A program made the translations under genes and the position numbers. 64,000 nt of DNA from Bacteroidota bacterium (lineage in GTDB: Bacteria > Bacteroidota > Bacteroidia > Palsa-948): contig PLUL01000039.1 in NCBI GenBank assembly GCA_003164895.1, positions 4,307-68,306 of the forward strand, read 5' to 3'. Within the stretch, counting starts at the first letter, position 1. Every line of letters begins with the position of its first letter. Shown here piece by piece: positions 30,483 through 57,780 of this stretch. Below the pieces are notes generated by a model, which made no database searches, was not told the origin of the DNA, and saw nothing but the letters and a program-made list of their open reading frames with translations.

Positions 30483-30498
30483 AGTGATTTAAATCACT
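30483..30498. promoter_or_regulatory. Perfect 16-bp palindrome AGTGATTTAAATCACT (FNR/CRP-type TGAT-N4-ATCA box)
   Basis: Perfect inverted repeat in the 460-bp leader, 241 nt upstream of the ATG at 30739. Confidence 0.5.
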
Positions 30499-30738
30499 AT
30501 TGAAATTGATAAAAAACAACGGAATTACAAATCATTATCATTTTCTAAGAAATTTAAAAAATGTTCTTTTGATTCGTGAAAATAAGTCAACAAACACGAA
30601 TTTGAAACCTGCAATAAATTATTTTAAAAGATGAGAAAAAACAAGTCAACTAATGATAAGAGTCATTGCATGGTACACGATTCTTTCTTCTCTTTGCCGC
30701 GTAATTATTTTAGTTCTTAACCAATTAAAAAAAACATT

Positions 30739-31161
30739 ATGCGATTCAAAATTAAATTTCATCATTTGCTTCTTATGGGAGCTTTGATGTTCGGTTCTTG
30801 TCAAAAAGAATATGTAACACCTAAGCCATCTACACCACCACCACCACCCGGATCAATAAAATTTTCAGCAGATATTGTTCCAATCTTCATAACAAACTGT
30901 GGGAAATCAGGATGCCATGATGCTACTACTGATAAGGCAGGATTGAATTTATCTACTGCTGCTACAGCATATGAAGATCTTTTCGACAATAGTGAAATTG
31001 ATACAACAAATTTACCGAGCAGTGCTGCAACCAGTAATTTGTATATAAGAATGACGAGTACTAATACTCCTATGCCACCTCTTTCAGCAGGAGGCAAATT
31101 ATCGTCAACCGAAACAGATAAAGTTTTAGCATGGATAAAGGCAGGAGCAAAAAATAATTAA
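30739..31161 (+). CDS. Lipoprotein with planctomycete-cytochrome-c-like (PSCyt-type) domain carrying CX4CH instead of CXXCH
   Basis: Lipobox LMFGSC. IVPIFITNCGKSGCHD...LNLST...MPP...L...ETDKVLAWIKAGAKNN follows the PSCyt1-like pattern, but four residues separate the cysteines. Paralogue at 43194-43595. Confidence 0.55.
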   Translation: MRFKIKFHHLLLMGALMFGSCQKEYVTPKPSTPPPPPGSIKFSADIVPIFITNCGKSGCHDATTDKAGLNLSTAATAYEDLFDNSEIDTTNLPSSAATSNLYIRMTSTNTPMPPLSAGGKLSSTETDKVLAWIKAGAKNN

Positions 31162-31194
31162 ATAAATAAAAGAAACGATAAAAAACTAAAATAT

Positions 31195-32103
31195 ATGAAA
31201 TCAAAAATATTTCTTCTAATTCCTCTGCTTTGGGCAGGAGCAGCCATAGCGCAGGACAGCACCGGTACGGAAAAGCCAGCGAAAAAAAATCTGCCGGTGA
31301 AAAATGCATTTGAAAGCAACTGGATTATGAATAATCAAAGCATGGTTGTTCCTTTTGCAAATACACTTGAGTTTGACATTAACCATCGTTTTGGCACGGT
31401 TGAAAAGGGTGACGATATGCTCGGCATGTATGAACCTGCGAATATTCGTTTGGGAGTAACTTATACTCCGATGAAGAACCTACAAATAGGAGGAGGGATT
31501 ACGAAAGAATCAATGATGAATGATTTAAACCTTAAATGGAATATATTACAGCAAACTCGCTCAGGTAGTTTTCCGGTTTTTATTACTTATTACGGAAATG
31601 TAGTGGTTAACGGGACAAGAAACGGAGTTAATTGGTCTATCAAAGGTGTTGATGGAAAAGACAGTATTGTAAATGAAAAATTTCCTAATGATGCCAGCCG
31701 TTTTTCTTATTTCAATCAGTTAATTATTGGAAGAAAATTTTGTGACTGGCTTTCTGTACAGGTAGCCGTTTCCTATGCTCATTATAATTTAATTGATACC
31801 ACAAATGGAAATCCTCACGATAGGAAGAATGATAATCTGGCAATAAGTATAGCCGGACGCGTTAAAACTACAGCAACAATGTCTGTTCTCTTTGCTTACG
31901 ATATGCCATTGAATCCGGCAACAGGAGTAAAACCAAATTTAGCATTGGGAGTTGAGTGGTCAACCGGCTCTCATGCATTTCAAATATTTCTTTCGCCATA
32001 CACATCCATCATCAATCAGCAAGATATGGTCTACAATACCAATGATTTCACAAAGAAACAAGTTGCCATCTGTTTTAATATTTCAAGACTTTGGAATTTT
32101 TAA
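31195..32103 (+). CDS. Outer-membrane beta-barrel protein (HRFG-motif family)
   Basis: Signal peptide, motif LEFDINHRFG, alternating beta-strand pattern, C-terminal NISRLWNF (terminal Phe). Paralogue at 43621-44535 (FEFTIQHRFG, ...ITKRWNYF). Confidence 0.6.
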   Translation: MKSKIFLLIPLLWAGAAIAQDSTGTEKPAKKNLPVKNAFESNWIMNNQSMVVPFANTLEFDINHRFGTVEKGDDMLGMYEPANIRLGVTYTPMKNLQIGGGITKESMMNDLNLKWNILQQTRSGSFPVFITYYGNVVVNGTRNGVNWSIKGVDGKDSIVNEKFPNDASRFSYFNQLIIGRKFCDWLSVQVAVSYAHYNLIDTTNGNPHDRKNDNLAISIAGRVKTTATMSVLFAYDMPLNPATGVKPNLALGVEWSTGSHAFQIFLSPYTSIINQQDMVYNTNDFTKKQVAICFNISRLWNF

Positions 32104-32164
32104 TTAAAAAAATAAATAGAAAATAAAATTTAAAACACAAACCGCCTCTTTAAAAAATAACCCT

Positions 32165-32992
32165 ATGAAAAAATCAATTACCCTAACATTAGCAGGCATC
32201 GTTGCCATTGGAGCTATGTCGTTCGACATTTTAACGAGCAATGGAAAAGCAGGAAAGACCGGTGCATATACTGAAGGCAATTGCACAAGTTGCCACAGTG
32301 ATTATGCTGTCAATTCAGGACCTGGATCCATTGCGATTACATCCACTCCGTCACTTACAAACGGTTATGTTGCCGGAACTACTTATACAGTAAATGTAAC
32401 AGTAGCACAGTCAGGAGTTTCTCTTTTTGGATTTGATTTTGAAGCCTTAACAAATGCAACTACCAATGGAGGAACGCTTGCCGTTGTTTGTACTGATACT
32501 AAAACCTTAGCTTCATCAAGTCGGACTGATGTTGTTCACACAGGAACCGGTAATGCTACCGCAGATTCACATACATTTTCTTTTGTGTGGACCGCACCCA
32601 CCACTGGTACTAGCACCGTTACTTTCTATGCATCTGGAAATGCCGCTGATGGAGATGGATCAACAAGTGGTGACTATATATATACAACATCATTACCCAT
32701 TTCTAATGTTACCAGTGTAGAAGAAAACGTTGAAGCAAACTTTAACCTCTCAGTTTTTCCAAATCCGGTTTCTGATAATGTTAATGTTAAATTTACTTTA
32801 ATGGAAACATCTGATATTACCATTGATCTGATGGACATTAACGGGAACAAAATTGCCAATATTATTTCTGAAAACGGAATGAAAGGCGACATCAACAAAA
32901 CCTTTAATGTTTCTTCTTATTCCAAAGGAGTTTATTTTCTGCAAATAAAAAATGAGAAAGCATCATCTATTAAAAAATTAATTATTAAATAA
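32165..32992 (+). CDS. T9SS-sorted protein with N-terminal CXXCH-containing Reeler/DOMON-like beta-sandwich domain
   Basis: Signal peptide, GNCTSCHSDY (CXXCH) at the start of the mature domain, FSFVWTAPTTGTSTVTFYASGNAADGDG (Reeler-like pattern), and T9SS tail VFPNPVSDNVNVKF...GVYFLQIKNEKASSIKKLIIK. Confidence 0.6.
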   Translation: MKKSITLTLAGIVAIGAMSFDILTSNGKAGKTGAYTEGNCTSCHSDYAVNSGPGSIAITSTPSLTNGYVAGTTYTVNVTVAQSGVSLFGFDFEALTNATTNGGTLAVVCTDTKTLASSSRTDVVHTGTGNATADSHTFSFVWTAPTTGTSTVTFYASGNAADGDGSTSGDYIYTTSLPISNVTSVEENVEANFNLSVFPNPVSDNVNVKFTLMETSDITIDLMDINGNKIANIISENGMKGDINKTFNVSSYSKGVYFLQIKNEKASSIKKLIIK

Positions 32993-33061: not shown

Positions 33062-33970
33062 ATGGAAGGGAACGACAATAACAACGATCGCAGGAATTTT
33101 TTGAAGGCAGGATTGCTAACAGGCGGTTCATTATTAGCCGCATCTGCATTGCAATCTGTTTTTTCATCTGAAAAAGATTCCGGTGAAAAAGTAAAAGTGC
33201 TTACCACCGATGGGAAATTGGTGGAAGTGGATTCTACTCACATCAAGAAAGCTCAACCTTGTTGTGTCAATTCCAAGGAATCGCGTGTTGGAATTCCTGA
33301 TAAAAAATTTGTGATGGTAATTGATATGTCTCGTTGTAAAGATGCACTCAAATGTCAGAAGTCATGCGCTAAGCATCATGCATTACCCGAAGATGTGAAA
33401 TGGCTAAAGGTTTTAAAAATGCAGGAGTCGGAAGAAACTGCTCCATACTGGATGCCGAAACCATGTTTTCATTGCGATCATCCGCCTTGCGTGAAAGTTT
33501 GTCCGGTTGATGCAACTTATAAAAGGAGTGATGGAATCGTGTTGATAGATAATGAGCGTTGTATTGGTTGCAGATTTTGCATGGCAGCTTGTCCGTATTC
33601 CGCAAGATCATTTAATTGGGGAGAACCAAAAATCCCTACTGATGCAAATTATTCTCCCGAAACAAGTGTGCCAAGAAAAAAAGGAACAGTTGAGAAATGT
33701 GATTTCTGTCCTGATATGTTAAGGCAAGGAAAACTTCCGCATTGTGTTTCAGCTTGTCCGAATGGTGTATATTATTTTGGTGATTTGAATGAAGATACGG
33801 TTACCAATGGTGATGAAACACTTAGGTTTAGTCAGCTTATTAAGGATAAAGCAGGTTACAGAGAATTGGAATCACTCGGTACAGAACCGAGCGTTTATTA
33901 TTTGCCAGCTGCAAATCGAATTTTTCCTTTTAAAGATAGAGTGGAAAATAAAGAGGAACATCAACATTAA
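33062..33970 (+). CDS. Tat-exported 4Fe-4S ferredoxin-type subunit (NrfC/PsrB/ActB2-like), module 1
   Basis: Twin-arginine motif DRRNFLKAGLL. Cluster motifs CFHCDHPPCVKVCP, CIGCRFCMAACP and CDFCPDMLRQGKLPHCVSACP are present. The first cluster motif is atypical (CKDALKCQKSC). Confidence 0.8.
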   Translation: MEGNDNNNDRRNFLKAGLLTGGSLLAASALQSVFSSEKDSGEKVKVLTTDGKLVEVDSTHIKKAQPCCVNSKESRVGIPDKKFVMVIDMSRCKDALKCQKSCAKHHALPEDVKWLKVLKMQESEETAPYWMPKPCFHCDHPPCVKVCPVDATYKRSDGIVLIDNERCIGCRFCMAACPYSARSFNWGEPKIPTDANYSPETSVPRKKGTVEKCDFCPDMLRQGKLPHCVSACPNGVYYFGDLNEDTVTNGDETLRFSQLIKDKAGYRELESLGTEPSVYYLPAANRIFPFKDRVENKEEHQH

Positions 33971-34032: not shown

Positions 34033-35403
34033 ATGGAAGACATCGTAAAACCGGCAAATGACGCAGAAGCAATTAAAATGTTGCACCAATTTAATGAGGA
34101 TTTATTGCCAAAAAAATTTGGTAAGATTGGTGTAACATGGGTGCTTTTTCTTTGCGTTATCATTATTAATGGATTATTTTTTTACGTCAAACAATTAAGA
34201 AATGGATTAAGTGTAACCGGAATGGGCGACATTGTTTCATGGGGAATTTATATATCCAATTTTGTTTTTTTTGTAGCAATAAGTTTGGTCGGTTCATTAA
34301 TTACTGCCGTACTTTACCTTTTAAATGTAAACTGGCGCTCACCGCTTACACGGATTGCAGAAATTATTGCAGTCGCAGCCATCGTTTTTGCCGGTCTTAT
34401 TATTATAGTAGATATGGGGCGACCGGATCGAATTCTGAACATGTTTATTTATGGAAGAATTCAATCGCCAATAGTTTGGGATGTGATAGTTGTAATGACT
34501 TATATGACGATAAGTCTTTTACTTCTATATTTTCCGTTGCTTCCTGGAATTGCTTTTTGCAGAGACCGTCTTCCTGGTATTCCAAAATGGCAGAAATGGA
34601 TGTACAAATTCTTATCATTTGGATGGCAATGGAAACCGGAACAATTCAAAATTGTGAAAAGAGCTATTGCAATTTTATCGGTACTAATTATTCCGGTTGC
34701 GTTTAGCATTCACACCGTTACTTCGTGGTTATTTGCTACTACATATCGTCCGGGCTGGGACAGCAGCATTTTCGGTCCTTACTTTGTAGCCGGTGCATTT
34801 ATGGTGGGAGCTGGTGGAGTTATTGCTGCCATGTACGTTCTTGTAAGATTTTTTCCGCGCTACGACAAGTATATCACCGATAAACATTTTGACCGCATGG
34901 GAATTTTACTTGCGTTGCTCTCCATGGTTTATTTATACTTTAATATAAATGAATACATGGTTCCCGGTTATAAAATGAAAGGTGAAGATGCACAATACCT
35001 CACAGAATTATTTGTAGGAAAATTTGCGATGATGTTTTGGTCAGTTCAGGTTTTTGGAATGATAATTCCCATTATTCTTCTTTTGTTCAAAAAATTCAGA
35101 CGCCCTTTTCCGATTTTTATTATTTCGATTTGTGTGATTGTCGGAGCATGGTTCAAACGTTTTCTGATTGTCATTCCTACTTTACTTCATCCCTTTCTTC
35201 CAATTCAGGAGGTTCCCGAAAAATTTAAAGTATACATACCCACTCTTGCGGAATGGTCAATCACTCTTGCCTCATTGGCTGGAGCGTTATTAATCATCAC
35301 AGTTTTTATTCGTTATTTTCCAATTATTTCTATTTGGGAAGTGGCTGAAGAAAGAGGAATAGGACATGATGTAATTTATAAACATTTAAACGAAAAAGAA
35401 TGA
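34033..35403 (+). CDS. NrfD/PsrC/ActC-like polytopic quinone-interacting membrane subunit, module 1
   Basis: 456 aa with ~10 hydrophobic helices. Family-like segments include VSWGIYISNFVFFVAISLVGSLI, DMGRPDR and GPYFVAGAF. It lies directly after the FeS gene, the classic NrfC-NrfD order. Confidence 0.75.
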   Translation: MEDIVKPANDAEAIKMLHQFNEDLLPKKFGKIGVTWVLFLCVIIINGLFFYVKQLRNGLSVTGMGDIVSWGIYISNFVFFVAISLVGSLITAVLYLLNVNWRSPLTRIAEIIAVAAIVFAGLIIIVDMGRPDRILNMFIYGRIQSPIVWDVIVVMTYMTISLLLLYFPLLPGIAFCRDRLPGIPKWQKWMYKFLSFGWQWKPEQFKIVKRAIAILSVLIIPVAFSIHTVTSWLFATTYRPGWDSSIFGPYFVAGAFMVGAGGVIAAMYVLVRFFPRYDKYITDKHFDRMGILLALLSMVYLYFNINEYMVPGYKMKGEDAQYLTELFVGKFAMMFWSVQVFGMIIPIILLLFKKFRRPFPIFIISICVIVGAWFKRFLIVIPTLLHPFLPIQEVPEKFKVYIPTLAEWSITLASLAGALLIITVFIRYFPIISIWEVAEERGIGHDVIYKHLNEKE

Positions 35404-36347
35404 AAAATAAAATATCATCTCAGAGGCGGATACTTTCACACATTTATTCATTAGTGATTTTGCTATTAATAAATGGATTTGTTCTCGTTGGAAATAAGGC
35501 AATGTGTCAGGGCAAACAGGAAGGTGCAGAAAAAAAATCCATTTCCATCTCTCTAAGCTGTAAAACTTCCGATGGATTAAAACAAGTTAAAGTAAAAGCT
35601 ACTCGCAGAGAGAATAAAAAAAGTATTCCGCTAGATAATGCAAAATCTCCTATCGCATTATATTTTGATAAAGTTGGAGATAAAGATCCATCAAATGGAA
35701 CTGGACTTATTGGTAAACTTTATTTGAATGATGATGGAGAAGTGAATTTTGATCTTCCAGATAATTTTAATTCACAAACATCTGGGTTACATCAATTCAA
35801 ATTTATTGTCAAGTTGGAATCAGATCCATTGTATGAAGATGCTCAAGAAGAAATTTCTATTTCAGATGCAAAAATCAATATTGATTATTTCGGAAAGGAT
35901 TCTATCAAGACAGCAACAGCAACATTAACCGAATGGAAAGATACTGCGTATGTTCCTGTTTCAGGAGTAGAAATGAAACTATCCATCAAAAGAGCATTCA
36001 GTCTGTTTTCCTTTGGCGGTGAAGGACTTACTACGGATAAAAGCGGAAATGTATCTGCTGATCTTCCTTTGGATATTCCCGGAGAACCAGGTGGAAAAAT
36101 TACAATTGTTGCAAGTGTGATTGACAACGATACTTATGGTTCGCTTGAAAGTACAAAGAAAGTAGAGTGGAGTGTTCTTCCCAAAACAAACGAAGAAATT
36201 GGACGAACACTTTGGTCAAGAGGAAATAACGCGCCAATTTCATTAGTCATTATTTCTTGTTCCATCATTGCGGTAATCTGGGGAATACTGATTTATCTTG
36301 TTTTCCAGTTATTTAAAATAAAAAAAATAAGTAAACAACAAGCGTAA
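35400..36347 (+). CDS. Uncharacterised periplasmic beta-rich protein with C-terminal membrane anchor, module 1
   Basis: ATGA start/stop overlap with the NrfD-like gene (35400-35403). It has an N-terminal hydrophobic leader and ~250 aa without Cys/His cofactor motifs. A C-terminal TM (ISLVIISCSIIAVIWGILIYLVFQLF) is followed by a basic tail. Paralogue at 40219-41094. Confidence 0.6.
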   Translation: MKNKISSQRRILSHIYSLVILLLINGFVLVGNKAMCQGKQEGAEKKSISISLSCKTSDGLKQVKVKATRRENKKSIPLDNAKSPIALYFDKVGDKDPSNGTGLIGKLYLNDDGEVNFDLPDNFNSQTSGLHQFKFIVKLESDPLYEDAQEEISISDAKINIDYFGKDSIKTATATLTEWKDTAYVPVSGVEMKLSIKRAFSLFSFGGEGLTTDKSGNVSADLPLDIPGEPGGKITIVASVIDNDTYGSLESTKKVEWSVLPKTNEEIGRTLWSRGNNAPISLVIISCSIIAVIWGILIYLVFQLFKIKKISKQQA

Positions 36348-36401: not shown

Positions 36402-36854
36402 ATGAAATCAAATCCAAAACAACCAACTTTTGCAGCAGTTACAACGGTAATCATGCTGTTTGTATTTGTAGGAATGCTCAGTATGTCATTCATGAATAAT
36501 TCTCAGGATGATAAAAAGAAAAAACCATGGGTAGTACTGGAAAAATCGAAAGCAATGAAAAACCCTGTGAAAGCGGACGCTACTTCACTATCGAAAGGAA
36601 AAGAATTATATACTAAACATTGTAAATCGTGCCATGGATCCGCAGGAAAAGGCGACGGACCTAAAGCAAAAGAATTAGATACTCCAACCGGTGATTTTAC
36701 TGACAAATCATTTCAGGCGCAGACTGAAGGAGAGATTTTTTACAAAGCTAAAGAGGGTAGAGATGATATGCCAAGCTTCAAGAAAAAACTTCCGGAAGAC
36801 GAAGATATTTGGACGATCGTTAATTATGTGCGTTCATTATCAGGAGCGAAATAG
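36402..36854 (+). CDS. Membrane-anchored class I monohaem cytochrome c, module 1
   Basis: N-terminal TM segment, CKSCHG haem motif, distal Met region GRDDMPSF, conserved C-terminal WTIVNYVRSL. Confidence 0.8.
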   Translation: MKSNPKQPTFAAVTTVIMLFVFVGMLSMSFMNNSQDDKKKKPWVVLEKSKAMKNPVKADATSLSKGKELYTKHCKSCHGSAGKGDGPKAKELDTPTGDFTDKSFQAQTEGEIFYKAKEGRDDMPSFKKKLPEDEDIWTIVNYVRSLSGAK

Positions 36855-36935: not shown

Positions 36936-37424
36936 ATGCAACTTGAAAAAGAAATACACCAGGTCAAGCCATTCAGGAACGACTATCATAAAGCGTCTGT
37001 AAATATTGTTTATACAGGAAAATGGATGATGCAGTTTCATGCAGATATATTAAAACCCTACGGCTTAACAATTCAGCAATATAATATTCTACGAATCTTA
37101 CGAGGTCAATATCCAAATGCCACAACGGTAAAACTTATTCGTGAACGGATGCTCGATCGTATGAGCGATGCATCTCGAATCGTTGAACTCCTCCGAAAAA
37201 AAGGATTAGTTGAGAGAACTATTTGCGCAGGAGACAGAAGAAGGATGGATGTCGTAATCACTCAACTTGGTATTTATCGGTTGATTGAAATTGAAAATGA
37301 AAACGAGCGTATGGATAAACGTCTCTTTAGTTTAGATGATCAAGAAATTATTCAACTGAATACACTTCTTGATAAAATCAGGAATATTCCTGATATTTTG
37401 CCTTCTGTTGTACCTTCATTATAG
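36936..37424 (+). CDS. MarR family transcriptional regulator
   Basis: 162 aa winged-helix pattern: LTIQQYNILRILRG...RMLDRMSDASRIVELLRKKGLVER...DRRRMDVVIT. Paralogue at 48569-49030. Confidence 0.8.
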   Translation: MQLEKEIHQVKPFRNDYHKASVNIVYTGKWMMQFHADILKPYGLTIQQYNILRILRGQYPNATTVKLIRERMLDRMSDASRIVELLRKKGLVERTICAGDRRRMDVVITQLGIYRLIEIENENERMDKRLFSLDDQEIIQLNTLLDKIRNIPDILPSVVPSL

Positions 37425-37462: not shown

Positions 37463-37476
37463 TTGATATAAATCAC
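37463..37476. promoter_or_regulatory. FNR-type box TTGATATAAATCAC
   Basis: TGAT-N4-ATCA core with a canonical TTGAT left half-site, embedded in AAAAG...CTTTT flanks, 229 nt upstream of the module 2 ATG (37705). Confidence 0.45.
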
Positions 37477-48493: not shown

Positions 48494-48568
48494 TTGTGAA
48501 AATTTTTAAAGCACTTAATAATAGAATGAGAGAAATGAATAAAGATAATAGTCGTCAGCTAATTGTTT

Positions 48569-49285: not shown

Positions 49286-49303
49286 AACTGATAATTATCA
49301 GTT
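49286..49303. promoter_or_regulatory. Perfect 18-bp palindrome AACTGATAATTATCAGTT (TGAT-N4-ATCA box)
   Basis: Perfect inverted repeat in the 481-bp leader, 209 nt upstream of the ATG at 49512. Confidence 0.5.
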
Positions 49304-49511: not shown

Positions 49512-52346
49512 ATGAAAAAGTTAATCTTTACATTAGTCTCGCTCGCGAGTGCAGTGCTGATTATTTTCAGCACGTTCTCCTTGTCTCATTCAAGGAGTCA
49601 GAAATTAGTTCCCTCCGCCAGATCGGGAGGACCAGCATCAGGACCGGATGGTGGGCAATCATGTACTGCTTGCCATTCCTCGTATTCGAGTTCATTTGCA
49701 AAAACAGGATGGATCACTTCAGATATTCCTGGAAATGCCTATGTGCCTGGAGCAACTTATAATATTACTGTTACAGTAAATTCTAAAGGTTACAAACATG
49801 GCTTTGAAACAAGCTGTCAAACAGCAACAGCATGTGTAGGAACCTTTATCTCGAATGATTCAACACAAGTACTTTATGCTGGAACAAATTCATGGATTAC
49901 ACACTTAGATAGCATTACTGCCATGCAACGTGTTCCACAAATTGTTCCTTGCCAAAAAGGTTTCTATGGAACTCATCATAATCAAAATTCCCATTCTTGG
50001 ACATTCCAATGGACAGCTCCAACTGCTGGCACAGGCACAGTAACAATTTATTCAGCAATGGTTGCAGCAAATGGAAATGGAAGCGATAATTTAGCTGCCT
50101 ATCCACAAACATCTTGGAAAGGTGATTCTGTATTTACTTCTTCACTTGCACTTACAGAAAATACTACAGCAAATTTTTCAAGTATTGTAAAACCATGCGG
50201 AAGTTCCAGTAATGGTTCGGCAACAGTTAACGCTACCTTTGGAACGGGTCCTTATACATATTTATGGACACCTTCTGCTCAAACAACTTCTAATGCTACG
50301 GGTTTGGCAGCAGGTAATTACACTGTTAGTGTTCATGATGCTTTATCTGCAAGTATGAATTTGCATTTAACATTACAAAACGGCGTAAGTGCAATAATAA
50401 ATGATCAAAATACACCAAGTTGCCCAGGTGCAATTGCCACACATGCTGTGCTTGCTTTGGGTGGAACAACTCCTTATACATATTTATGGAGTGGTGGTGG
50501 ACAAACCACTTCATCGGTTACTGGTTTAATTCCTGGAACATATTCAGTTACAATTACGGATGCGGCTGCTTGTTCCACTATATATACTTTTAATGCAACA
50601 GATAAACAAGCTTTTTTTACTTATTTCTATAACTGGCAGGATAGTAATGTAACTTGCAAAGGCGGAAACAACGGCTATGCAAAAATACAAACTCGAAATA
50701 ATATTACCGGTTCTTTAGCTTACTCATGGAATTCCGGTCAAACAACGCAGACAGTAACTAACTTAGCAGCAGGTACATATACCTGCACTGTAGTAAACAC
50801 AGGTACTGTTACCGGATGTACAACAACGGTAACTACTACATCCACAGTTACCATTACTGAACCGGCAGCGGCACTTACTGCATCAATAACAGCGCAAAAC
50901 AACGGTTGTAATAATGCAAATAACGGCACTGCAACAGCTTCTGGTTTTGGCGGAACTGCTCCTTATTCGTATGCTTGGAGTAATGGCTCAACAACTTTTC
51001 CAGTGCAAACCACACCAACGGCTACTGGTTTAGCACCAGGAAATTATTCTTGTACTGTAACTTGTTACGGTACATATGTAACTTCGCAAGATGTTCCTCC
51101 ACTACAAAGAGCAACTTCAAAAGTTGGTTCGTGTTATTCAATAGCTACTGTAACAATCACAAATCCCACAGCCCTTACTTCAACGGTTACCAGTACTAAT
51201 GCAAGTTGCAATATTTCTAATGGAACTGCAAGCGTTAGTGCATCGGGTGGAGCAGGAAGTTATACATATTTTTGGTCTAACTCACATACAACTGCAAGTA
51301 TAACAGGACTTAATGCTAATTCATACGGTGTTATTGTAACAGATGCCAACGGTTGCACTTCTGCAGGTGTTGCCAATGTTATTAACAATGGTGCTCCTAC
51401 TGCAACTGTAACACCAACTAATGCGTTGTGTCATGGCGGTAATGGCAGTGCAACGGTAGCAGCGAGCGGTGGAACCGGAGCATTCTCTTATGTATGGAGC
51501 AGCGGTTCAAGTACATCGGCAGCAAATAATCTTGCATCAGGAAATTACACAGTAACCGTTACCGATGCAAGTAGTTGCTCAACAACAACAACAGTAACTA
51601 TTACTCAGCCAACCGCTGTTACAGCATCCGCTTCAGTAACTGCAAATGTTAGTTGCAATGGTGGAAATGATGGCAGTGCAGCAGTAACAGCAGGGGGCGG
51701 TACTCCAACTTATAATTATGCTTGGAGCAATGGTTCACCAAATCCAAGTGCCGGGCAGCTTACTGTTGGAGGTTATACAGTAACTATAACTGATGCCAAC
51801 GGTTGTACAAAAATTGCTTCTGTAACAATTACTCAACCTATTGTTTTAACTGCTACAATGAGTTCTACTGACCAAACAGTTGCATCTCCTGCAAATGGAA
51901 CTGCAACAGCAAATCCATCCGGCGGATCAGGAGCATACTTATATGCTTGGAGTACAACTCCAGTGCAAACTACATCCACGGCTACGGATCTTGATGATGG
52001 AACTTATTCAGTAACTGTTACTGATGCTCATGGTTGTACACTTACAAATACCGTAGTTGTTCTCAGTACCGTGGGTATTAATACGATTGATTTGGAAAAT
52101 TCAGTTTCAGTGTTTCCTAATCCAAACCTCGGAGAGTTTAATATTACTCTGAATGCTTCTGTGAGCAATAATTATGTGATTGAAGTGCGAAATTTGCTAG
52201 GACAAGTAATGTATAACGAAACATTGACAAACTTTAGTGGTAATTACATTAAACATCTTGATGTAAAAACTTATGGCGGAGGAATTTATTTCTTGAATAT
52301 CCGAAGCAATGAAAATCAAGTGGTGCGCAAGGTGGTTGTGAACTAA
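49512..52346 (+). CDS. Large T9SS-sorted surface protein: CXXCH Reeler/DOMON-like N-domain + ~8 SprB repeats
   Basis: Signal peptide, GGQSCTACHSSY, WTFQWTAPTAGTGTVTIYSAMVAANGNG (same domain as 32165-32992). About 8 repeats follow of the type C-x-G-x-x-NG-x-A...GG-x-x-PY-x-Y-x-WS...GTYSVTVTDA-x-GC. T9SS tail VFPNPNLGEFNITL...GIYFLNIRSNENQVVRKVVVN. Confidence 0.7.
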   Translation: MKKLIFTLVSLASAVLIIFSTFSLSHSRSQKLVPSARSGGPASGPDGGQSCTACHSSYSSSFAKTGWITSDIPGNAYVPGATYNITVTVNSKGYKHGFETSCQTATACVGTFISNDSTQVLYAGTNSWITHLDSITAMQRVPQIVPCQKGFYGTHHNQNSHSWTFQWTAPTAGTGTVTIYSAMVAANGNGSDNLAAYPQTSWKGDSVFTSSLALTENTTANFSSIVKPCGSSSNGSATVNATFGTGPYTYLWTPSAQTTSNATGLAAGNYTVSVHDALSASMNLHLTLQNGVSAIINDQNTPSCPGAIATHAVLALGGTTPYTYLWSGGGQTTSSVTGLIPGTYSVTITDAAACSTIYTFNATDKQAFFTYFYNWQDSNVTCKGGNNGYAKIQTRNNITGSLAYSWNSGQTTQTVTNLAAGTYTCTVVNTGTVTGCTTTVTTTSTVTITEPAAALTASITAQNNGCNNANNGTATASGFGGTAPYSYAWSNGSTTFPVQTTPTATGLAPGNYSCTVTCYGTYVTSQDVPPLQRATSKVGSCYSIATVTITNPTALTSTVTSTNASCNISNGTASVSASGGAGSYTYFWSNSHTTASITGLNANSYGVIVTDANGCTSAGVANVINNGAPTATVTPTNALCHGGNGSATVAASGGTGAFSYVWSSGSSTSAANNLASGNYTVTVTDASSCSTTTTVTITQPTAVTASASVTANVSCNGGNDGSAAVTAGGGTPTYNYAWSNGSPNPSAGQLTVGGYTVTITDANGCTKIASVTITQPIVLTATMSSTDQTVASPANGTATANPSGGSGAYLYAWSTTPVQTTSTATDLDDGTYSVTVTDAHGCTLTNTVVVLSTVGINTIDLENSVSVFPNPNLGEFNITLNASVSNNYVIEVRNLLGQVMYNETLTNFSGNYIKHLDVKTYGGGIYFLNIRSNENQVVRKVVVN

Positions 52347-53530: not shown

Positions 53531-53956
53531 ATGAAAACAACTATTCAACCCCCAGTACTCATGACACTCCTTGTTATATGCGGAGCAATTTTGTTTATGT
53601 CATCAACCTTAAAAAAAGTTCAGCAAACAACACCATGGGTGGCACCTTCGTCGGCTGATACAATTAAAAATCCATTGAAAGGCAATGCACAAGCGGCAGA
53701 TGAAGGAAAAAAATTATACGCTCAGAATTGTGCAGTATGCCACGGCGACAAAGGAAAGGGAGATGGAATTGCAGCGGCAGGATTAAATCCTAAACCGGCA
53801 AATCACACTTCAGAAAAAGTTCAAATGCAAACTGACGGAGCAATTTTTTGGAAAATGACTACAGGAAGACCACCAATGGCATCGTATGCAACAACATTAA
53901 GCGTAACACAACGCTGGCAGTTGGTGAATTTTATGCGCACTCTAAAGAAAAAATAA
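53531..53956 (+). CDS. Class I monohaem cytochrome c
   Basis: CAVCHGDKGKGDG, GRPPMASY, WQLVNFMRTL; same family as 36402, 41120 and 46539. Confidence 0.8.
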   Translation: MKTTIQPPVLMTLLVICGAILFMSSTLKKVQQTTPWVAPSSADTIKNPLKGNAQAADEGKKLYAQNCAVCHGDKGKGDGIAAAGLNPKPANHTSEKVQMQTDGAIFWKMTTGRPPMASYATTLSVTQRWQLVNFMRTLKKK

Positions 53957-53972: not shown

Positions 53973-55229
53973 ATGAAACCTATGAAAACACTTATTAAAA
54001 CAATCACAATAGGAGGATTCATGTTATTCAACTTTGCAACAGTTAGCAAAGCGCAAGACTCAACACAAATAGATAAGCCCAATAAACCCGGTGGAAGTAA
54101 CACGAAGTTTTTACTTGCCGGAAAAGCGCAGATGTCATGCACAAATACAATTACTCAAATGCCCGGAAGCCCAGATGTAAAGGCAAACACTTTTTTTCCG
54201 GATGCGTTTATGTTGATGCCATTAGTGAAAGTAAATAACAAACTTTTTTTAGATGCACAGATTGAAGTTGACGCTAATGGAATTGGAGGTGGGTCGTCAA
54301 TTAATCTGAATGAATTAATTGTCTATTATAGAGTCGCTCCCGCTCTTAGCATTTTTGCAGGAAACTTTAGTCCTAAATATGGTTTGTATGCAGGTGTGTT
54401 GGATGATTTTACCAATCGTTATTGCACTGACCCAATAGGAATGAGCAGAGGACCAAGTACACAAACAGGAATTGGTATTCAAGGTGGAGTGCAGGCAGGA
54501 TATTCTAAATTTAATTACCAATTGTATGTTGCAAACGGACCTCAAATGACGGTGGATAGCACAACTAAAGGAAGCAACAATCTTACAGGACAATTGACCT
54601 ACGGAAATTACTCAGATAATAATATGAATAAAGCAATAGGAGGATCAATCGGTTTTCTTCCTTTTTCAAATTCTTCTCTTCAAATTGATGTATCTGGACA
54701 ATGGGCTGGAAAAGTAGGTACTACTGGAACTCCTTTTGAAAACATCAGCAGTACATCATTTGCCGCAGATCTGAATTACTATCATGTGTTTAGTCCTATT
54801 ATGGTAAGAGTGTTGGCAGAATATAATAGTACAACTACAAAAAATTATAATTATCCTTGGTATTCTGATTCTACAAAATCATCTTATTTAATACCGACGT
54901 TTAATAATCAATTCAGCGGATGGTTTTGCGGAGCTACTGTGCGCGCTTCGGGATCAGGACATGCATTTCTAAGCAACCTTGAATTAGGTGCACGTGTTGG
55001 CGGCTACACTCCACCAAGCTATGTTAATGATAAAGATAAATATACTAATTATCCGAATCAGACGGGATTACAGTCACCTTGGGGAGAAAATCCTGAAACG
55101 CAAACCACTGTGTGTCTCACTTATTGGTTAACCTGGAAGACACCGCTTAATATAGCTTATGATGTTCTAAAGATGTCCAATGGACCAACTGTTACTACTT
55201 ATACAGCAAGATTGATTTACTTTTTCTAA
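53973..55229 (+). CDS. Porin-like outer-membrane beta-barrel (paralogue of 46987-48204)
   Basis: Signal peptide ending KAQ, 418 aa, shared blocks (TDPIGM vs TDPIGV; GGSIGFLPFSNSSLQIDVSG vs SGRFALLPFSNSSLEIGVSG), C-terminal ARLIYFF. Confidence 0.6.
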   Translation: MKPMKTLIKTITIGGFMLFNFATVSKAQDSTQIDKPNKPGGSNTKFLLAGKAQMSCTNTITQMPGSPDVKANTFFPDAFMLMPLVKVNNKLFLDAQIEVDANGIGGGSSINLNELIVYYRVAPALSIFAGNFSPKYGLYAGVLDDFTNRYCTDPIGMSRGPSTQTGIGIQGGVQAGYSKFNYQLYVANGPQMTVDSTTKGSNNLTGQLTYGNYSDNNMNKAIGGSIGFLPFSNSSLQIDVSGQWAGKVGTTGTPFENISSTSFAADLNYYHVFSPIMVRVLAEYNSTTTKNYNYPWYSDSTKSSYLIPTFNNQFSGWFCGATVRASGSGHAFLSNLELGARVGGYTPPSYVNDKDKYTNYPNQTGLQSPWGENPETQTTVCLTYWLTWKTPLNIAYDVLKMSNGPTVTTYTARLIYFF

Positions 55230-55281: not shown

Positions 55282-55551
55282 ATGAAAACCACAAAACATA
55301 TCTGCATTGGTGTAATTGTACTTATTATCGGTGTAATCATTGGCAACGGATGCAAAGTTCCTGAATCTATTGCCAATAAATCAGGAGCGCAACTGTGGGG
55401 AGAGAATTGCAATCGCTGCCACAATGCACCCGATCCCAAAACATATAGTGATGATCAATGGGATGCAGCTACCGAACACATGAGGCAGAAAGCGATTCTT
55501 ACCAATACCGAAATTAATAAGATCAGAGTGTTTCTTAAATCAGCAAATTAA
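55282..55551 (+). CDS. Mini CXXCH lipoprotein, putative monohaem cytochrome (paralogue of 48218-48493)
   Basis: Lipobox IGNGC; GAQLWGENCNRCHNAPDP...DQWDAATEHMRQKAILTNTEINKIRVFLK. Confidence 0.6.
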   Translation: MKTTKHICIGVIVLIIGVIIGNGCKVPESIANKSGAQLWGENCNRCHNAPDPKTYSDDQWDAATEHMRQKAILTNTEINKIRVFLKSAN

Positions 55552-55552
55552 A

Positions 55553-55879
55553 ATGTTAAACGGTAATCAATATTTGTACACCATGTTTGACCAAAACAAT
55601 AAAAAAAATAGTCGGATTGATTTGTCCGAACCATTGCAGGCAATAAGAGAATCTATCATTTCGATCAGGCGGACAATAGATTTCATGAATTCACGCAAGC
55701 ACAAAAATGATAAGGAAGAACAACCCATGTTTGAAGATATTCATAACCTGCTTTCATCTCTCAGCCATGTGTTGAAACACAGTATTCATCACGCAAAAAA
55801 CAAGGATGAAATTCTTCAGGTAAAACAAACACACGATTTGGTAAATGAAGCGTGCTCGGAGTTAAAACAAATATTATAA
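55553..55879 (+). CDS. Small cytoplasmic helical His-rich protein, function unknown
   Basis: The start codon lies 1 nt after the previous stop (TAA-A-ATG). No signal peptide; His-rich stretch HNLLSSLSHVLKHSIHHAKN. Confidence 0.4.
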   Translation: MLNGNQYLYTMFDQNNKKNSRIDLSEPLQAIRESIISIRRTIDFMNSRKHKNDKEEQPMFEDIHNLLSSLSHVLKHSIHHAKNKDEILQVKQTHDLVNEACSELKQIL

Positions 55880-55946
55880 TCAATCATAAATTCATAACAA
55901 ACTGTTTATATAAATCAATCTTCATCAACCAATAAAATCAAATACA

Positions 55947-56405
55947 ATGCGCAAAAAAATCTTAACAGCAATTGCCGTATGTACATTATTCCTAATAGTA
56001 AAGTGCGGCACCGACACTCAACCTACCACCACAACGCAATCAACGGTAGCCAAAAAGGATACAGTTGATAATGGAATCGGTCAGTTTAAAGATGTGAAGT
56101 TAACTCACCCATTGGATCAAGGAATGGCTGGCAAAGGCGAAGATATTTACAAAGCAAAATGTATTGCTTGTCATAAATTAACTACCGAAAAATTAGTTGG
56201 TCCGGGTTGGAAAGGAGTTACCGACAGAAGAACTCCCGAGTGGATCATGAATTTTATTACCAACACCAATGTGATGCTGGATAGCGACTTAGTTGCTCAG
56301 CAATTAATGGTTGTTTGTGTGGCAAGAATGCCTAATCAGAATGTGAACAACGATGACGCTCGTTTTGTACTTGAGTTCTTGAGAAAGAATGACGGAAAAA
56401 ATTAA
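55947..56405 (+). CDS. Lipoprotein class I cytochrome c (distinct subfamily)
   Basis: Lipobox LIVKC, CIACHK haem motif, distal Met in ARMPNQN. Confidence 0.75.
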   Translation: MRKKILTAIAVCTLFLIVKCGTDTQPTTTTQSTVAKKDTVDNGIGQFKDVKLTHPLDQGMAGKGEDIYKAKCIACHKLTTEKLVGPGWKGVTDRRTPEWIMNFITNTNVMLDSDLVAQQLMVVCVARMPNQNVNNDDARFVLEFLRKNDGKN

Positions 56406-56484
56406 CACTGCGAATTACGAATTGGCAAATTACTAATCATTCGTAATTAGAAGATTGGTAATTCGTAGAACTAAAAATGATAGT

Positions 56485-57780
56485 ATGATGAAGTCTAAAA
56501 ATTTCTGGATCAGTTTATCACTTCTCAACCTATGTATTGTAACTGTGCTGGGCGTTATTTTGAGAAGCAAAGCGCTTTTTGATCTGCCTATCATTGATTA
56601 CAACCATTTACTAAACGCTCATTCGCATTTTGCTTTTGGCGGATGGGTAACACTTGCGCTGATGGTGTTACTGATGCACACGTTATTGACCGAATCGCAG
56701 AAACAAAAATCTATTTACCAGTTTGTTTTCTGGAGCATCTTTGTTACGGTATGGGGATTGCTTTTTACATTTCCTTTTTCGGGATATAATACATGGTCAA
56801 CCTACATTTCAACTCTTTTTACTTTCACCACATATATTTTTAGCTGGGTTTTTATCCGCGATGTGCTGAAAGCAAAAGTGAGCAAAACAGTTCTTATTTT
56901 ATCCATCGCATCCGTTTTTTGCATGGTATTGTCTTCGGCAGGTTCTTTCACATTGGGATATTTGTTTGCCACCAAATCGTTGAAAGCAATTTTGTATCGC
57001 GATGCATTGTTCTCGTATTTGCATTTGCAGTACAATGGTTTTTTTACACTCGCTGTCTTTGCGTTGCTCTTTCAAAAGATAGAATCAAAGTTTTCGGTCG
57101 AAGTTCAAAAAAAGATATATCGTTTTGCTTTGGTACTTGTAATTTCAATTTTGCCATCCATGTTTCTTTCTTATCACTGGCACGATCCAAGTTTTCTTTT
57201 TCACGTAATTGCTTATATCGGCAGCGCTCTTTTATTAATCAGTTTTGGTTTGTTTATTCCTGTATTGAAGGCAATTTTAAAACTGTATAAATCGGTTCCC
57301 ATCTTATTTAAATTTATCGGAGGACTATCGCTTGGAGCTTTCATGCTCAAAATGTTTTTGCAAAGTTTCACCATAATTAATTTTTTTGGCAACTTGGTTT
57401 TTGGCGATCGCCCCATCATTATGGGATTTCTGCATTTGGTGTTTCTTGGTTTTGTTTCACTTTTTCTGCTTGCCTATTTTGCAAAAACCGGATTGCTCAA
57501 TACCGAAAAAACATTTACAAAAGTTTCGCTGGTTGTGTTTGCAATGGGAGCGTTGCTTAACGAAACTCTTTTGTGGGCGCAGGGTTTTGCCGCCATGCTT
57601 ATTCAAAGCAGCGATATATTCCCATGGCTGCTTTGGGGAGCCGGCATTTGGCTCTTTATCGGCGCTGCTTTAATTGGCATTGCCCGAATTATTAGTGTGC
57701 CAAGTGTGGTGGCAGAAAAGAAAAAGGCACAAGTGCGCGAGGGCTTTTCGCCTTCAATTCCCGAACTGAAAAGATTTTAG
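56485..57780 (+). CDS. Polytopic membrane protein (>=10 TM) with conserved His motifs; possibly NnrS-like
   Basis: Start taken at ATG 56485. Hydrophobic throughout, with NAHSHFAFGGW and GFLHLVFLGF motifs that faintly recall the H-x-H...FG motifs of NnrS haem/copper membrane proteins. Family assignment is not secure. Confidence 0.4.
   Translation: MMKSKNFWISLSLLNLCIVTVLGVILRSKALFDLPIIDYNHLLNAHSHFAFGGWVTLALMVLLMHTLLTESQKQKSIYQFVFWSIFVTVWGLLFTFPFSGYNTWSTYISTLFTFTTYIFSWVFIRDVLKAKVSKTVLILSIASVFCMVLSSAGSFTLGYLFATKSLKAILYRDALFSYLHLQYNGFFTLAVFALLFQKIESKFSVEVQKKIYRFALVLVISILPSMFLSYHWHDPSFLFHVIAYIGSALLLISFGLFIPVLKAILKLYKSVPILFKFIGGLSLGAFMLKMFLQSFTIINFFGNLVFGDRPIIMGFLHLVFLGFVSLFLLAYFAKTGLLNTEKTFTKVSLVVFAMGALLNETLLWAQGFAAMLIQSSDIFPWLLWGAGIWLFIGAALIGIARIISVPSVVAEKKKAQVREGFSPSIPELKRF

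Follow-up and report, generated by a model that had tools for sequence, protein, structure and literature searches.

The FoxE-like cytochrome fold is widespread and is present in hydrazine synthase as well as in the FoxE Fe(II) oxidoreductase. The outer-membrane protein Cyc2 has been modelled on OprO/OprP templates (PMC8406198), and the described haem-copper oxidase (HCO) and NOR families all retain the active-site His residues, with one Asp substitution in gNOR (PMC11214002). Parts that resemble FoxE, the Cyc2 porin and the HCO fold occur in a gene cluster found in a 64-kb stretch of DNA from an uncultured Bacteroidota genome (the window). Judged from gene content, this cluster is two conserved sets joined together, one of which occurs in several hundred species. 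Our literature search found no paper describing the cluster or the gene sets, and no expression or phenotype data for the sets were found. The probable role of both sets is electron transfer across the cell envelope.

The ORF map of the window contains 31 consecutive plus-strand ORFs at 29529-57780, together with four long AT-rich spacers (30279-30738, 37425-37704, 49031-49511 and 53207-53530; GC 0.23-0.26), in agreement with the roughly 30 co-oriented ORFs and four AT-rich leaders described in an earlier sequence-only reading. That reading had also spoken of an island; composition comparison gave the cluster the same GC as its flanks, and it is therefore a gene cluster rather than a compositional island. 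Profile searches bear out the earlier parts list, with an AF2 model for one of two barrels that have no Pfam match, and pairwise identities among the cluster proteins bear out the reported redundancy, which is explained by paralogous modules. Likely true starts, as corrections to the ORF list, are 43194, 43621, 48218 and 56485. Genes for HemN, Usp and MoaA are found in the flanks, and the cluster itself also includes the following ORFs.

52433, +, signal-less C1 peptidase
44661 and 55553, +, small ORFs without a family

Set 1 is present in two copies, 30739-36854 and 37705-44535. Its core combines a Tat FeS protein and an NrfD subunit with an Ig-like anchor and a cytochrome c, and a CX4CH lipoprotein and a DUF5777 barrel accompany it.

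30739..31161, +, CX4CH haem lipoprotein A, FoxE/PSCyt1-type (PSCyt1 21.4 bits, just short of the 22-bit cutoff)
31195..32103, +, DUF5777 beta-barrel A (PF19089, 1.3e-66; C-terminal Phe)
32165..32992, +, choice-of-anchor V (Reeler-like) CXXCH protein with T9SS C-terminal domain (NF041895, 1.4e-28; Por_Secre_tail)
33062..33970, +, Tat-exported four-cluster FeS protein 1, NrfC/DsrO/PsrB type (Fer4_11)
34033..35403, +, NrfD-family membrane subunit 1 (NrfD, 1.7e-37)
35400..36347, +, bitopic Ig-like subunit 1 (N- and C-terminal hydrophobic segments by hydropathy)
36402..36854, +, monohaem class-I cytochrome c 1, CKSCH (Cytochrom_C/Cytochrome_CBB3)
37705..38700, +, Tat FeS protein 2 (Fer4_11; 54% identity with FeS protein 1)
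38749..40188, +, NrfD-family subunit 2 (NrfD, 6.7e-33; 43% identity with subunit 1)
40219..41094, +, Ig-like subunit 2 (weak Big_1 match; 28% identity with subunit 1)
41120..41590, +, class-I cytochrome c 2, CAICH (profile match)
41660..43120, +, EB_dh/DOMON-type lipoprotein with CX3CH (EB_dh, 6.4e-14)
43194..43595, +, CX4CH haem lipoprotein B (37% identity with lipoprotein A, in whose family alignment it falls)
43621..44535, +, DUF5777 barrel B (PF19089, 6.8e-66)

With respect to the inner-membrane module, the NrfD subunit is nearest to ActC of Alternative Complex III (ACIII): subunit 1 matches ActC 6btm_C at 2.3e-53, and its best solved relatives are the ActC subunits of four ACIII structures. 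Both Fer4_11 proteins carry the Tat signal RRNFLK, and FeS protein 1 matches PsrB (2vpw_B) at 1.4e-29 and the DsrO profile at 200.6 bits (cutoff 200). Profile searches returned no family for Ig-like subunit 1, a protein type encoded after NrfD in 70 of the best 80 loci among at least 488 NrfD relatives.

The proposed outer-membrane pair begins with the CX4CH lipoprotein, whose lipobox Cys and C-x4-CH are invariant across 46 sequences. Its family profile matches FoxE (5mab) at 1.8e-6, with homology extending to the terminal WIxQGAK motif; the CX4CH aligns as a CXXCH with two residues inserted, and one homologue has a plain CXXCH. That the FoxE-like fold is widespread, hydrazine synthase included, counts against the electron-relay reading. 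The third haem protein of Set 1 is variable, being here either the EB_dh/DOMON lipoprotein, whose family profile matches NxrC (7b04_C) at 1.4e-12, or the Reeler-like T9SS protein; in other genomes the same slot holds YceI-like lipoproteins and other cytochromes. In the T9SS protein, C40, C43 and H44 are invariant among 39 homologues, several of which contain PF02014 Reeler, and the N-terminus of a second T9SS protein is similar.

49512..52346, +, choice-of-anchor V CXXCH domain, six SprB repeats and T9SS C-terminal domain (SprB, Por_Secre_tail)

Set 2 is likewise present in two copies, 46539-48493 and 53531-57780, and is built on a triad of cytochrome c, OprO/OprP-like porin and mini-cytochrome lipoprotein.

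46539..46961, +, class-I cytochrome c 3, CINCH (profile match)
46987..48204, +, 16-strand OprO/OprP-like porin 1 (AF2 pLDDT 81)
48218..48493, +, mini CXXCH lipoprotein 1, CRRCH (weak Cytochrome_CBB3; 51% identity with mini 2)
53531..53956, +, class-I cytochrome c 4, CAVCH (profile match)
53973..55229, +, porin 2 (29% identity with porin 1, full length)
55282..55551, +, mini CXXCH lipoprotein 2, CNRCH (weak Cytochrome_CBB3)
55947..56405, +, class-I cytochrome c 5, CIACH, partner of the HCO-fold protein (profile match)
56485..57780, +, 12-TM protein with haem-copper-oxidase subunit-I fold (AF2 pLDDT 87.5)

Neither of the two barrels of about 410 residues (46987, 53973) has a Pfam match; homologues of porin 1 pass the Porin_O_P cutoff, and the top Foldseek matches of its AF2 model are PorB, OprO (4rjw) and OprP (2o4v). 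The predicted fold thus has OprO/OprP in common with the Cyc2 model. Six porin homologues are natural cytochrome c-porin fusions, an architecture like that of Cyc2. One fused locus also has Usp and ScdA/hemerythrin genes. The HCO-fold protein has no Pfam or NCBIfam family, and its AF2 model aligns with CcoN and NorB at a Foldseek TMq of 0.70-0.75. Unlike the described HCO and NOR families, it has only three invariant His (H46, H180 and H317), three of the six canonical His being absent. Three other loci (L087, L089 and L090) likewise have the Set 2 triad next to cytochrome c 5 and the HCO-fold gene, and in L087 the Set 2 genes adjoin a COX1-SCO1-cytochrome c-HemN group.

The window has nine real CXXCH ORFs, and every one lies inside the cluster, between 32 and 56 kb; the remaining 37 kb of the window has none save two spurious overlapping frames. 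CXXCH occurs no more than once in any ORF of the window, in agreement with the sequence-only reading, which reported no multihaem cytochrome. Its report of no haem-copper oxidase holds by sequence but is weakened by the fold of the last ORF (56485-57780). Neither a catalytic subunit nor a canonical terminal oxidase is encoded in the window, which, like the missing His of the HCO-fold protein, speaks against an electron relay. Three further cluster lipoproteins have CX3CH or CX4CH motifs, atypical sites that may fail to bind haem. The motif residues are invariant in the CX4CH lipoprotein and choice-of-anchor V families, and the CX3CH of the EB_dh lipoprotein (CYAACH) is kept in 24 of 29 homologues. 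Haem attachment in the cluster proteins is a prediction.

The profile searches returned three Crp/FNR and two MarR regulators, and the long leaders contain candidate operators.

29529..30278, +, Crp/FNR-family regulator 1 (cNMP_binding and HTH_Crp_2; N-terminal C-x2-C-x4-C; 44-45% identity with regulators 2 and 3)
45036..45761 and 45758..46477, +, Crp/FNR regulators 2 and 3 (each C-x2-C-x4-C-x5-C, from translation)
36936..37424, +, MarR regulator 1 (MarR_2; 72% identity with MarR 2)
48563..49030, +, MarR regulator 2 (profile match)
30485..30496, unstranded, leader 1 palindrome TGATTTAAATCA
~30654-30668, leader 1 second TGA-N6-TCA box with AGTCATTG
37464..37475, unstranded, leader 2 palindrome TGATATAAATCA
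~37508-37522, leader 2 second box with AGTCATTG
49289..49300, unstranded, leader 3 palindrome TGATAATTATCA
49423-49430, leader 3 AGTCATTG

Three of the four long leaders (1-3) and the usp promoter carry Crp/FNR-like TGA-N6-TCA boxes; seven were observed against 2.4 expected, six of them intergenic. The 8-mer AGTCATTG is confined to leaders 1-3. The cluster may be induced at low oxygen.

The NrfD scan, in which one genome per species was searched, returned at least 488 relatives. The gene order in the best 80 loci, which include the isolates Solitalea agri, Emticicia sp. and Pinibacter aurantiacus, is [YceI]-[EB_dh]-CX4CH lipoprotein-DUF5777-(cyt c)-FeS-NrfD-Ig-cyt c. Among 44 other Bacteroidota loci with full flanks, NrfD is accompanied by FeS and by DUF5777 in 42 each, by cytochrome c in 43 and by the CX4CH lipoprotein in 40, so that co-occurrence outside this genome, on which the earlier proposal had been staked, is found for the Set 1 core. 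The 27-kb unit as a whole is not conserved: Crp lies near NrfD in 2/44 loci, MarR in 0/44, choice-of-anchor V in 2/44 and the porin triad in 0/44. By this comparison the T9SS proteins, the regulators, the Set 1-Set 2 adjacency and the 27-kb arrangement are lineage-specific. Three other choice-of-anchor V genes do not adjoin an NrfD operon. One homologue adjoins a TonB-dependent receptor gene. Given this rarity beside NrfD and the separate location of the three other genes, surface placement of a terminal redox protein by T9SS, an element of the sequence-only reading, would be a local elaboration at most.

The account we find somewhat the more probable is that two conserved envelope redox sets form an electron relay connecting the quinone pool or inner membrane with a solute at outer-membrane pores. 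The envelope-spanning conduit proposed earlier is partly supported in this form, by core co-occurrence and metal-redox-like parts, while its 27-kb unity and T9SS role are weakened. Specifically, the Set 1 inner-membrane module would act as a pared-down ACIII, in which the ActC-like NrfD subunit binds menaquinol, electrons pass from the Tat-exported FeS protein to the monohaem cytochrome c, and the Ig-like bitopic protein is structural; the module is operonic with its proposed outer-membrane pair of FoxE/PSCyt1-type CX4CH lipoprotein and DUF5777 barrel. Set 2 would be a split cytochrome-porin whose cytochrome c is periplasmic, whose pore is 16-stranded and OprO/OprP-like, and whose third member is a tiny haem lipoprotein; its second copy would be wired via a further cytochrome c to the inner-membrane HCO-fold protein. 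In the present lineage both sets would have come under the control of Crp/FNR-type and MarR regulators. Unlike multihaem wires, one or two monohaems cannot span the outer membrane, and for this reason the model requires a small redox-active solute with access to haems at or within the pores, iron or humic-type compounds being the leading candidates. The process might be extracellular electron transfer or Fe(II) oxidation. Subunit contacts, substrate and electron direction are what we infer here; for Set 1, flow from quinol to the outside is favoured because ACIII and NrfCD oxidise quinol.

It is unlikely, in our estimate, that the cluster is instead a low-oxygen branch of an ordinary periplasmic respiratory chain, with FeS-NrfD-cytochrome c as alternative quinol:cytochrome c oxidoreductases, soluble cytochromes feeding terminal oxidases encoded elsewhere (cbb3, caa3) and perhaps also the HCO-fold protein, and barrels and lipoproteins serving assembly or solute uptake instead of electron transfer through the outer membrane. 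The ActC-like NrfD, the FNR-type regulators and boxes, the flanking HemN, Usp and MoaA genes and the COX1-SCO1-cytochrome c-HemN neighbours in L087 would all suit such a branch, but it leaves the extra outer-membrane haem lipoproteins without a role, the module forms a tight operon with DUF5777 and the haem lipoprotein in 40-42 of 44 loci, and in the cytochrome-porin fusions an outer-membrane protein bears a haem domain. Reductive metal acquisition in place of energy metabolism has a parallel in the Reeler-DOMON-cytochrome b561 ferric reductases of eukaryotes; here a surface or outer-membrane reductase of ferric iron or another metal would free Fe(II) for uptake through the pores. The Reeler-like and DOMON/EB_dh haem proteins, the YceI lipoproteins of related operons and the TonB-dependent receptor beside one choice-of-anchor V homologue point this way, yet iron transporters, Fur boxes and siderophore genes were not seen in the cluster, its regulators are of FNR/MarR type, and two NrfD modules would be costly for nutrition; we consider it quite unlikely.

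Hypoxic detoxification of NO, peroxide or another oxidant, with cytochrome c 5 and the HCO-fold protein as a NorCB-like reductase supplied by the remaining cytochromes, appears improbable. Although the fold is nearest CcoN and NorB, the adjacent cytochrome c gene recalls NorC-NorB and a fused cytochrome-porin locus carries Usp and ScdA/hemerythrin genes, described HCO/NOR proteins keep the active-site His (PMC11214002) where this one has just three invariant His, and Set 1 and the outer-membrane parts are left unexplained. Finally, the cluster could be an accidental neighbourhood of cytochrome genes with no common function, as its lineage-specific arrangement and its unrelated C1 peptidase and two orphan ORFs might indicate; the confinement of all nine real CXXCH ORFs to 27 kb, the duplicated modules, the common leader motifs and the independent conservation of two sub-clusters make this highly improbable.

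Taken together, the envelope relay, if true, would be built from single-haem parts and not from multihaem wires, and its pieces resemble known metal-redox parts, namely ActC of ACIII, FoxE and the Cyc2-type OprO/OprP porin.

The cluster at 29529-57780 comprises 31 consecutive ORFs, all on the plus strand of our ORF map, and profile searches against Pfam and NCBIfam bore out every item in the parts list of the sequence-only reading. Its four long spacers (leaders 1 to 4: 30279-30738, 37425-37704, 49031-49511 and 53207-53530) were likewise confirmed as AT-rich, with GC contents of 0.23-0.26. At gathering thresholds, no Rfam family matched anywhere in the window, so that these leaders contain no known riboswitch or RNA family.

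Protein families of the cluster (29529-57780, plus strand), as identified by profile searches
Two Tat-signal Fer4_11 proteins (FeS proteins) and two NrfD proteins
Five class-I cytochromes c
Two mini CXXCH lipoproteins
Two DUF5777 barrels
Two CX4CH lipoproteins (PSCyt1, 21.4 bits, slightly below the 22-bit cutoff)
One EB_dh lipoprotein
Two Por_Secre_tail proteins, whose N-terminal domain is the NCBIfam 'choice-of-anchor V' domain
Three Crp/FNR regulators and two MarR regulators

With respect to haem-binding motifs, no ORF in the 64-kb window contains two or more CXXCH motifs, in agreement with the earlier statement that multihaem cytochromes are absent, and all of the real CXXCH ORFs of the window (9/9) lie inside the cluster. 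The GC content of the cluster matches that of its flanks, which makes it a gene cluster as opposed to a compositional island. Horizontal acquisition was rejected on this ground and because related assemblies keep the same flanking genes. The window derives from an uncultured member of the Bacteroidota, and the same proteins are also found on metagenome contigs from ENA, JGI and NCBI, including GCA_003168055.1. Accessory genes of a clade II nos system, which use NapGH-like proteins and not NrfD, were ruled out as well, and the window contains neither NosZ nor NosD. A C1 (papain-family) peptidase lacking a signal peptide (52433-53206), located between an SprB-repeat T9SS protein and leader 4, has no evident redox link.

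An all-against-all comparison of the cluster proteins revealed three types of duplicated module, which we group into two sets. Additionally, the MarR proteins are 72% identical to one another, and the three Crp proteins are 44-52% identical.

Duplicated modules, with identity between copies
30739-36854 and 37705-44535, plus strand: Set 1, module type one, FeS protein (54%), NrfD (43%), Ig-like bitopic protein (28%) and cytochrome c
Same regions: Set 1, module type two, CX4CH lipoprotein (37%) and DUF5777 barrel (38%)
46539-48493 and 53531-57780, plus strand: Set 2, module type three (the triad), cytochrome c (50%), ~410-aa barrel (29%) and mini-cytochrome (51%)

In terms of the Set 1 inner-membrane proteins, the best solved relatives of NrfD are the ActC subunits of four alternative complex III (ACIII) structures (6btm_C, 6lod_C, 8k9e_C and 6f0k_C; E 2e-53 to 1e-46). 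The FeS protein is of the NrfC/PsrB/DsrO type (NCBIfam DsrO: 200.6 bits, cutoff 200) and carries an RRNFLK motif and Fer4_11; a twin-arginine motif is found in 73 of 85 homologues. The two copies (302 and 331 aa) consist of Fer4 domains only, and they match ActB in its C-terminal part only. In 82 of 85 homologues (loci L007-L086 of other genomes), the motif of the first cluster has three Cys, C-x5-C-x3-C, and not the canonical four; one cluster may therefore be [3Fe-4S] or differently liganded. Within the window, the protein at 33062-33970 has this three-Cys motif and the second copy (37705-38700) the canonical C-x2-C-x2-C-x3-C. For the Ig-like protein no relative was detectable, a profile search of PDB sequences giving no usable match; with no conserved Cys, His or Met, it is taken to be a structural subunit.

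We assessed the conservation of Set 1 by scanning an alignment of the two NrfD paralogues against one genome per GTDB species, which yielded at least 488 NrfD relatives. Among the best 80 of these loci, the recurring gene order was [YceI]-[EB_dh]-CX4CH lipoprotein-DUF5777-(cyt c)-FeS-NrfD-Ig-cyt c. This order is present in Chitinophagaceae, Sphingobacteriales, Cytophagales, Cyclobacteriaceae, Saprospiraceae and Flavobacteriales, and in the isolates Solitalea agri, Emticicia sp. and Pinibacter aurantiacus. Neighbours were counted at the 44 NrfD loci with full flanks.

Genes near NrfD (loci of 44)
Cytochrome c: 43
FeS protein: 42
DUF5777 barrel: 42
CX4CH lipoprotein: 40
Ig-like protein: 37
YceI: 29
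EB_dh lipoprotein: 19
Choice-of-anchor V protein: 2
Crp regulator: 2
MarR regulator: 0
Porin triad: 0

These counts indicate that a core is conserved and that the 27-kb assembly is local to the lineage of the window. Co-occurrence outside this genome thus holds for the Set 1 core (40-43 of 44 loci) and fails for the full assembly, for which Crp (2/44), MarR (0/44) and the triad (0/44) are telling. Pfam and NCBIfam matches of Set 1 name domains only and no function, no description of the operon or of the wider system was found in the literature searched, and its FeS-NrfD module is not listed in a review of NrfD proteins (PMC8076601). Related operons (L009-L084) contain a YceI-like lipoprotein gene (29/44) upstream of the CX4CH lipoprotein gene, a position in which many also encode a 176-aa polytopic membrane protein and a 170-aa lipoprotein without family; none of these three is encoded in the window.

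The predicted outer-membrane lipoproteins of Set 1 carry unusual haem-like motifs. Specifically, the lipobox Cys and C-x4-CH are invariant among 46 sequences of the CX4CH family, with plain CXXCH in one homologue. The family profile aligns with haem domain 2 of FoxE (5mab) through the terminal WIKQGAK (E 1.8e-6). It also aligns with the hydrazine synthase alpha cytochrome domain, and in each case CX4CH reads as a CXXCH enlarged by two inserted residues. The EB_dh family matches NxrC, and some members add a canonical cytochrome c domain. Among the EB_dh/DOMON-type lipoproteins (41660-43120 and homologues in L009-L083), C-x3-CH is conserved in 24 of 29, making it an unusual candidate haem c site within a domain known for haem b. 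Judged by motifs that are invariant or nearly so, the CX3CH and CX4CH lipoproteins are putative c-type cytochromes.

Both Por_Secre_tail proteins bear the C-terminal sorting domain of T9SS type A cargo (5.5e-17 and 1.3e-15). Their CXXCH is invariant among 39 choice-of-anchor V homologues, some of which have a Pfam Reeler domain. Choice-of-anchor V proteins lie beside the NrfD operon in 6 of the 80 best loci, in the closest relatives only, and at none of 3 independent loci, and a role as general companion of this operon was rejected. Of those independent loci, one has the gene next to that of a TonB-dependent receptor, and another has YceI and a PSCyt1-like gene in its vicinity. In locus L092 (4794-9210), the gene for a choice-of-anchor V CXXCH T9SS protein shares a putative operon with those for a TonB-dependent receptor (Plug) and for a DUF5074 protein, neighbours that suggest a metal or haem uptake context for the domain family. 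Five further T9SS-sorted proteins flank the cluster (1740-4688, 6547-9429, 10353-13310, 57796-58653 and 60852-62222). They comprise an S8 peptidase, a PKD-repeat protein, two proteins of unknown function and a GH25 lysozyme, so that T9SS cargo, unrelated proteins included, is generally dense in this part of the genome.

Turning to regulation, the three Crp proteins combine Crp-family domains with an N-terminal C-x2-C-x4-C(-x5-C) motif, a candidate site for the [4Fe-4S] cluster of FNR-type oxygen sensors. The palindrome TGAT-N4-ATCA occurs 7 times in the window against 2.4 expected, with 6 sites intergenic; sites precede the first ORF after leaders 1, 2 and 3 by 223-254 nt, and the palindrome is also found directly upstream of the usp gene. 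Perfect sites for the strict FNR consensus TTGAT-N4-ATCAA are absent, and the enrichment is limited to this shorter core. In 64 kb the 8-mer AGTCATTG is found just three times, once each in leaders 1, 2 and 3 (30661-30668, 37515-37522 and 49423-49430), 77-189 nt upstream of the first ORF, and is part of a second TGA-N6-TCA box that is exact in leaders 1 and 2 and has one mismatch in leader 3. From these sequence features, low-oxygen induction of the cluster is a reasonable inference. The flanks encode a HemN-like radical-SAM protein (27490-28848, minus strand), MoaA (58791-59801, plus strand) and a tandem Usp protein (62475-63413, minus strand), with a TGATAGAAATCA box in the usp promoter region (63441-63452). 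These genes and the box are consistent with a wider low-oxygen regulon, and they hint at a molybdoenzyme encoded elsewhere.

The ~410-aa barrel of Set 2 has no Pfam match in the window, and several of its homologues pass the Porin_O_P cutoff. An AF2 model of the porin at 46987-48204 (pLDDT 81) has 16 main strands, and its Foldseek matches include PorB, OprO (4rjw) and OprP (2o4v), the latter two within the top 5; a profile search of PDB sequences with the porin family gave no usable match, and fold comparison alone was informative. OprO 4rjw and OprP 2o4v are reported by Keffer et al. (PMC8406198) as structural relatives of, and templates for, the Cyc2 porin. The porin family numbers 568 representatives at 50% clustering. 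Among the homologues read, six (P0310, P0312, P0329, P0330, P0358 and P0361) have a class-I cytochrome c fused at the N-terminus of the porin, resembling the cytochrome c encoded upstream of the window porin. These natural fusions argue that cytochrome and porin are functionally linked. In these proteins a long coiled-coil-like linker joins a class-I monohaem cytochrome c to an OprO/OprP-like porin, and one of them is encoded at locus L095 near Usp and a ScdA/hemerythrin gene. No cytochrome fusion was found among 66 DUF5777 barrel homologues. The triad is also present at L087/L088, L089, L090 (Flavitalea sp. BT771) and L091, and in the first three of these it stands beside homologues of cytochrome c 5 (55947-56405) and of the last cluster ORF.

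This last ORF (56485-57780) belongs to no Pfam or NCBIfam family, and its more than 860 homologues are all annotated as hypothetical. Pfam COX1 does not match the window protein and matches 2 of 37 relatives weakly, and a profile search of PDB sequences gave no usable match for the family, leaving fold comparison alone informative. The AF2 model (pLDDT 87.5, pTM 0.88) contains twelve helices, and Foldseek matched it to CcoN of cbb3 oxidases and to NorB (TMq 0.70-0.75, probability 1.0). The earlier claim that the window lacks a haem-copper oxidase (HCO) therefore stands by sequence and is incomplete by structure, given the subunit-I fold of this protein. Canonical HCOs have six His ligands, one each on helices II and VI and two each on helices VII and X. 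Among 37 sequences of this family, the only invariant His residues are H46, H180 and H317, which fall on model helices II, VI and X when helices are assigned by DSSP order. We infer that the protein is HCO-derived and may keep a bis-His haem b, with no canonical binuclear centre.

Taken together, the evidence best fits an envelope redox relay. The sequence-only reading, which had proposed an envelope-spanning electron conduit, is confirmed in its observation and supported in part in its interpretation. In the mechanism we propose, a minimal ACIII-like menaquinol:cytochrome c module would serve pairs of outer-membrane haem lipoprotein and barrel, and a split cytochrome-porin would be wired to the inner-membrane HCO-fold protein. 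[quoted passage not shown] This relay has to be weighed against a low-oxygen respiratory branch working in the periplasm only, against reductive metal uptake and against detoxification of NO or oxidants.

Returning to the relay, we consider it possible, if somewhat short of an even chance, that the cluster represents a phylum-wide, undescribed class of trans-outer-membrane redox systems built from single haems only. Such a class would couple a mini-ACIII (FeS, ActC-like NrfD, Ig-like protein and cytochrome c) to a FoxE-type CX4CH lipoprotein in a DUF5777 barrel, and a split Cyc2-like cytochrome-porin to a new HCO branch whose metal site is reduced. In soils, peat, freshwater and sediments, Bacteroidota rank with the most abundant heterotrophs and, to our knowledge, do not figure among the organisms credited with electron exchange with iron or humic matter; if the proposal is true, this heterotroph-dominated phylum would be capable of iron or humic redox cycling at low oxygen. 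The Set 1 core operon is found in several hundred species representatives and is related to known ACIII, as Set 2 is to known cytochrome-porins. A working conduit would bring a large overlooked guild into the redox cycling of iron and humic matter at oxic-anoxic interfaces, and would mean that monohaem parts suffice to build electron transfer at the outer membrane. It would also offer two new objects of study, namely a four-subunit minimal relative of ACIII and an HCO-fold protein with half its metal ligands. Direct testing is feasible in cultured carriers (Solitalea agri, Emticicia sp., Pinibacter aurantiacus and Flavitalea sp. BT771).

Among known systems, the Set 1 module shares with ACIII (e.g. 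that of Flavobacterium johnsoniae, 6btm) an ActC-kind NrfD quinol subunit, a periplasmic FeS protein from the same superfamily, an operon that includes a gene for a monohaem cytochrome c and, presumably, quinol:cytochrome c activity. Unlike ACIII (ActABCDEF), it has no pentahaem ActA, and its FeS protein lacks the molybdopterin-like half that is fused to the FeS part in ActB (~950-1040 aa). It also has a single NrfD per module in place of ActC and ActF, includes an Ig-like bitopic subunit without known relative, and is operonic with outer-membrane proteins. As in NrfCD, DsrOP and PsrBC, a Tat-exported multi-cluster ferredoxin adjoins an NrfD partner; in contrast to those systems, the partners NrfAB, DsrMKJ and PsrA are missing from the window, NrfAB and DsrMKJ also being missing from 80 related loci, and the Set 1 NrfD scores 141.8 bits, far under the DsrP cutoff of 350.

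The CX4CH lipoprotein has significant homology to domain 2 of FoxE, the dihaem Fe(II) oxidoreductase of Rhodobacter ferrooxidans SW2, a type of fold also shared with hydrazine synthase alpha. Whereas FoxE is soluble and periplasmic and has two CXXCH class-I-like domains, this protein is single-domain with a CX4CH motif and is predicted from its lipobox Cys to be lipid-anchored, and no foxYZ genes accompany it. The HCO-fold protein resembles CcoN and NorB in its 12-helix subunit-I fold and neighbouring cytochrome c gene, and departs from the HCO superfamily in having three of the six canonical His. The described HCO and NOR families keep their active-site histidines, and the family of this protein corresponds to none of them (PMC11214002).

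In gene logic, the cluster is similar to MtrCAB and Geobacter Pcc, with a periplasmic cytochrome, an outer-membrane barrel and a lipoprotein cytochrome. Those systems employ a multihaem wire in a barrel of at least 20 strands, whereas the cluster cytochromes are all monohaem and its barrels have at most 16 strands, which rules out a continuous haem wire through the pore. Set 2 differs from Cyc2 of Fe(II) oxidisers, in which a monohaem domain is fused to the porin N-terminus, in that the window encodes cytochrome and porin separately (46539 and 46987), in that the cytochrome comprises a full class-I domain of ~100 residues (with a long linker in fused forms), and in that a mini-cytochrome lipoprotein is added. 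Like Cyc2, it pairs a single-haem cytochrome with a porin modelled as 16-stranded and OprO/OprP-like, and fused cytochrome-porin forms exist among its homologues.
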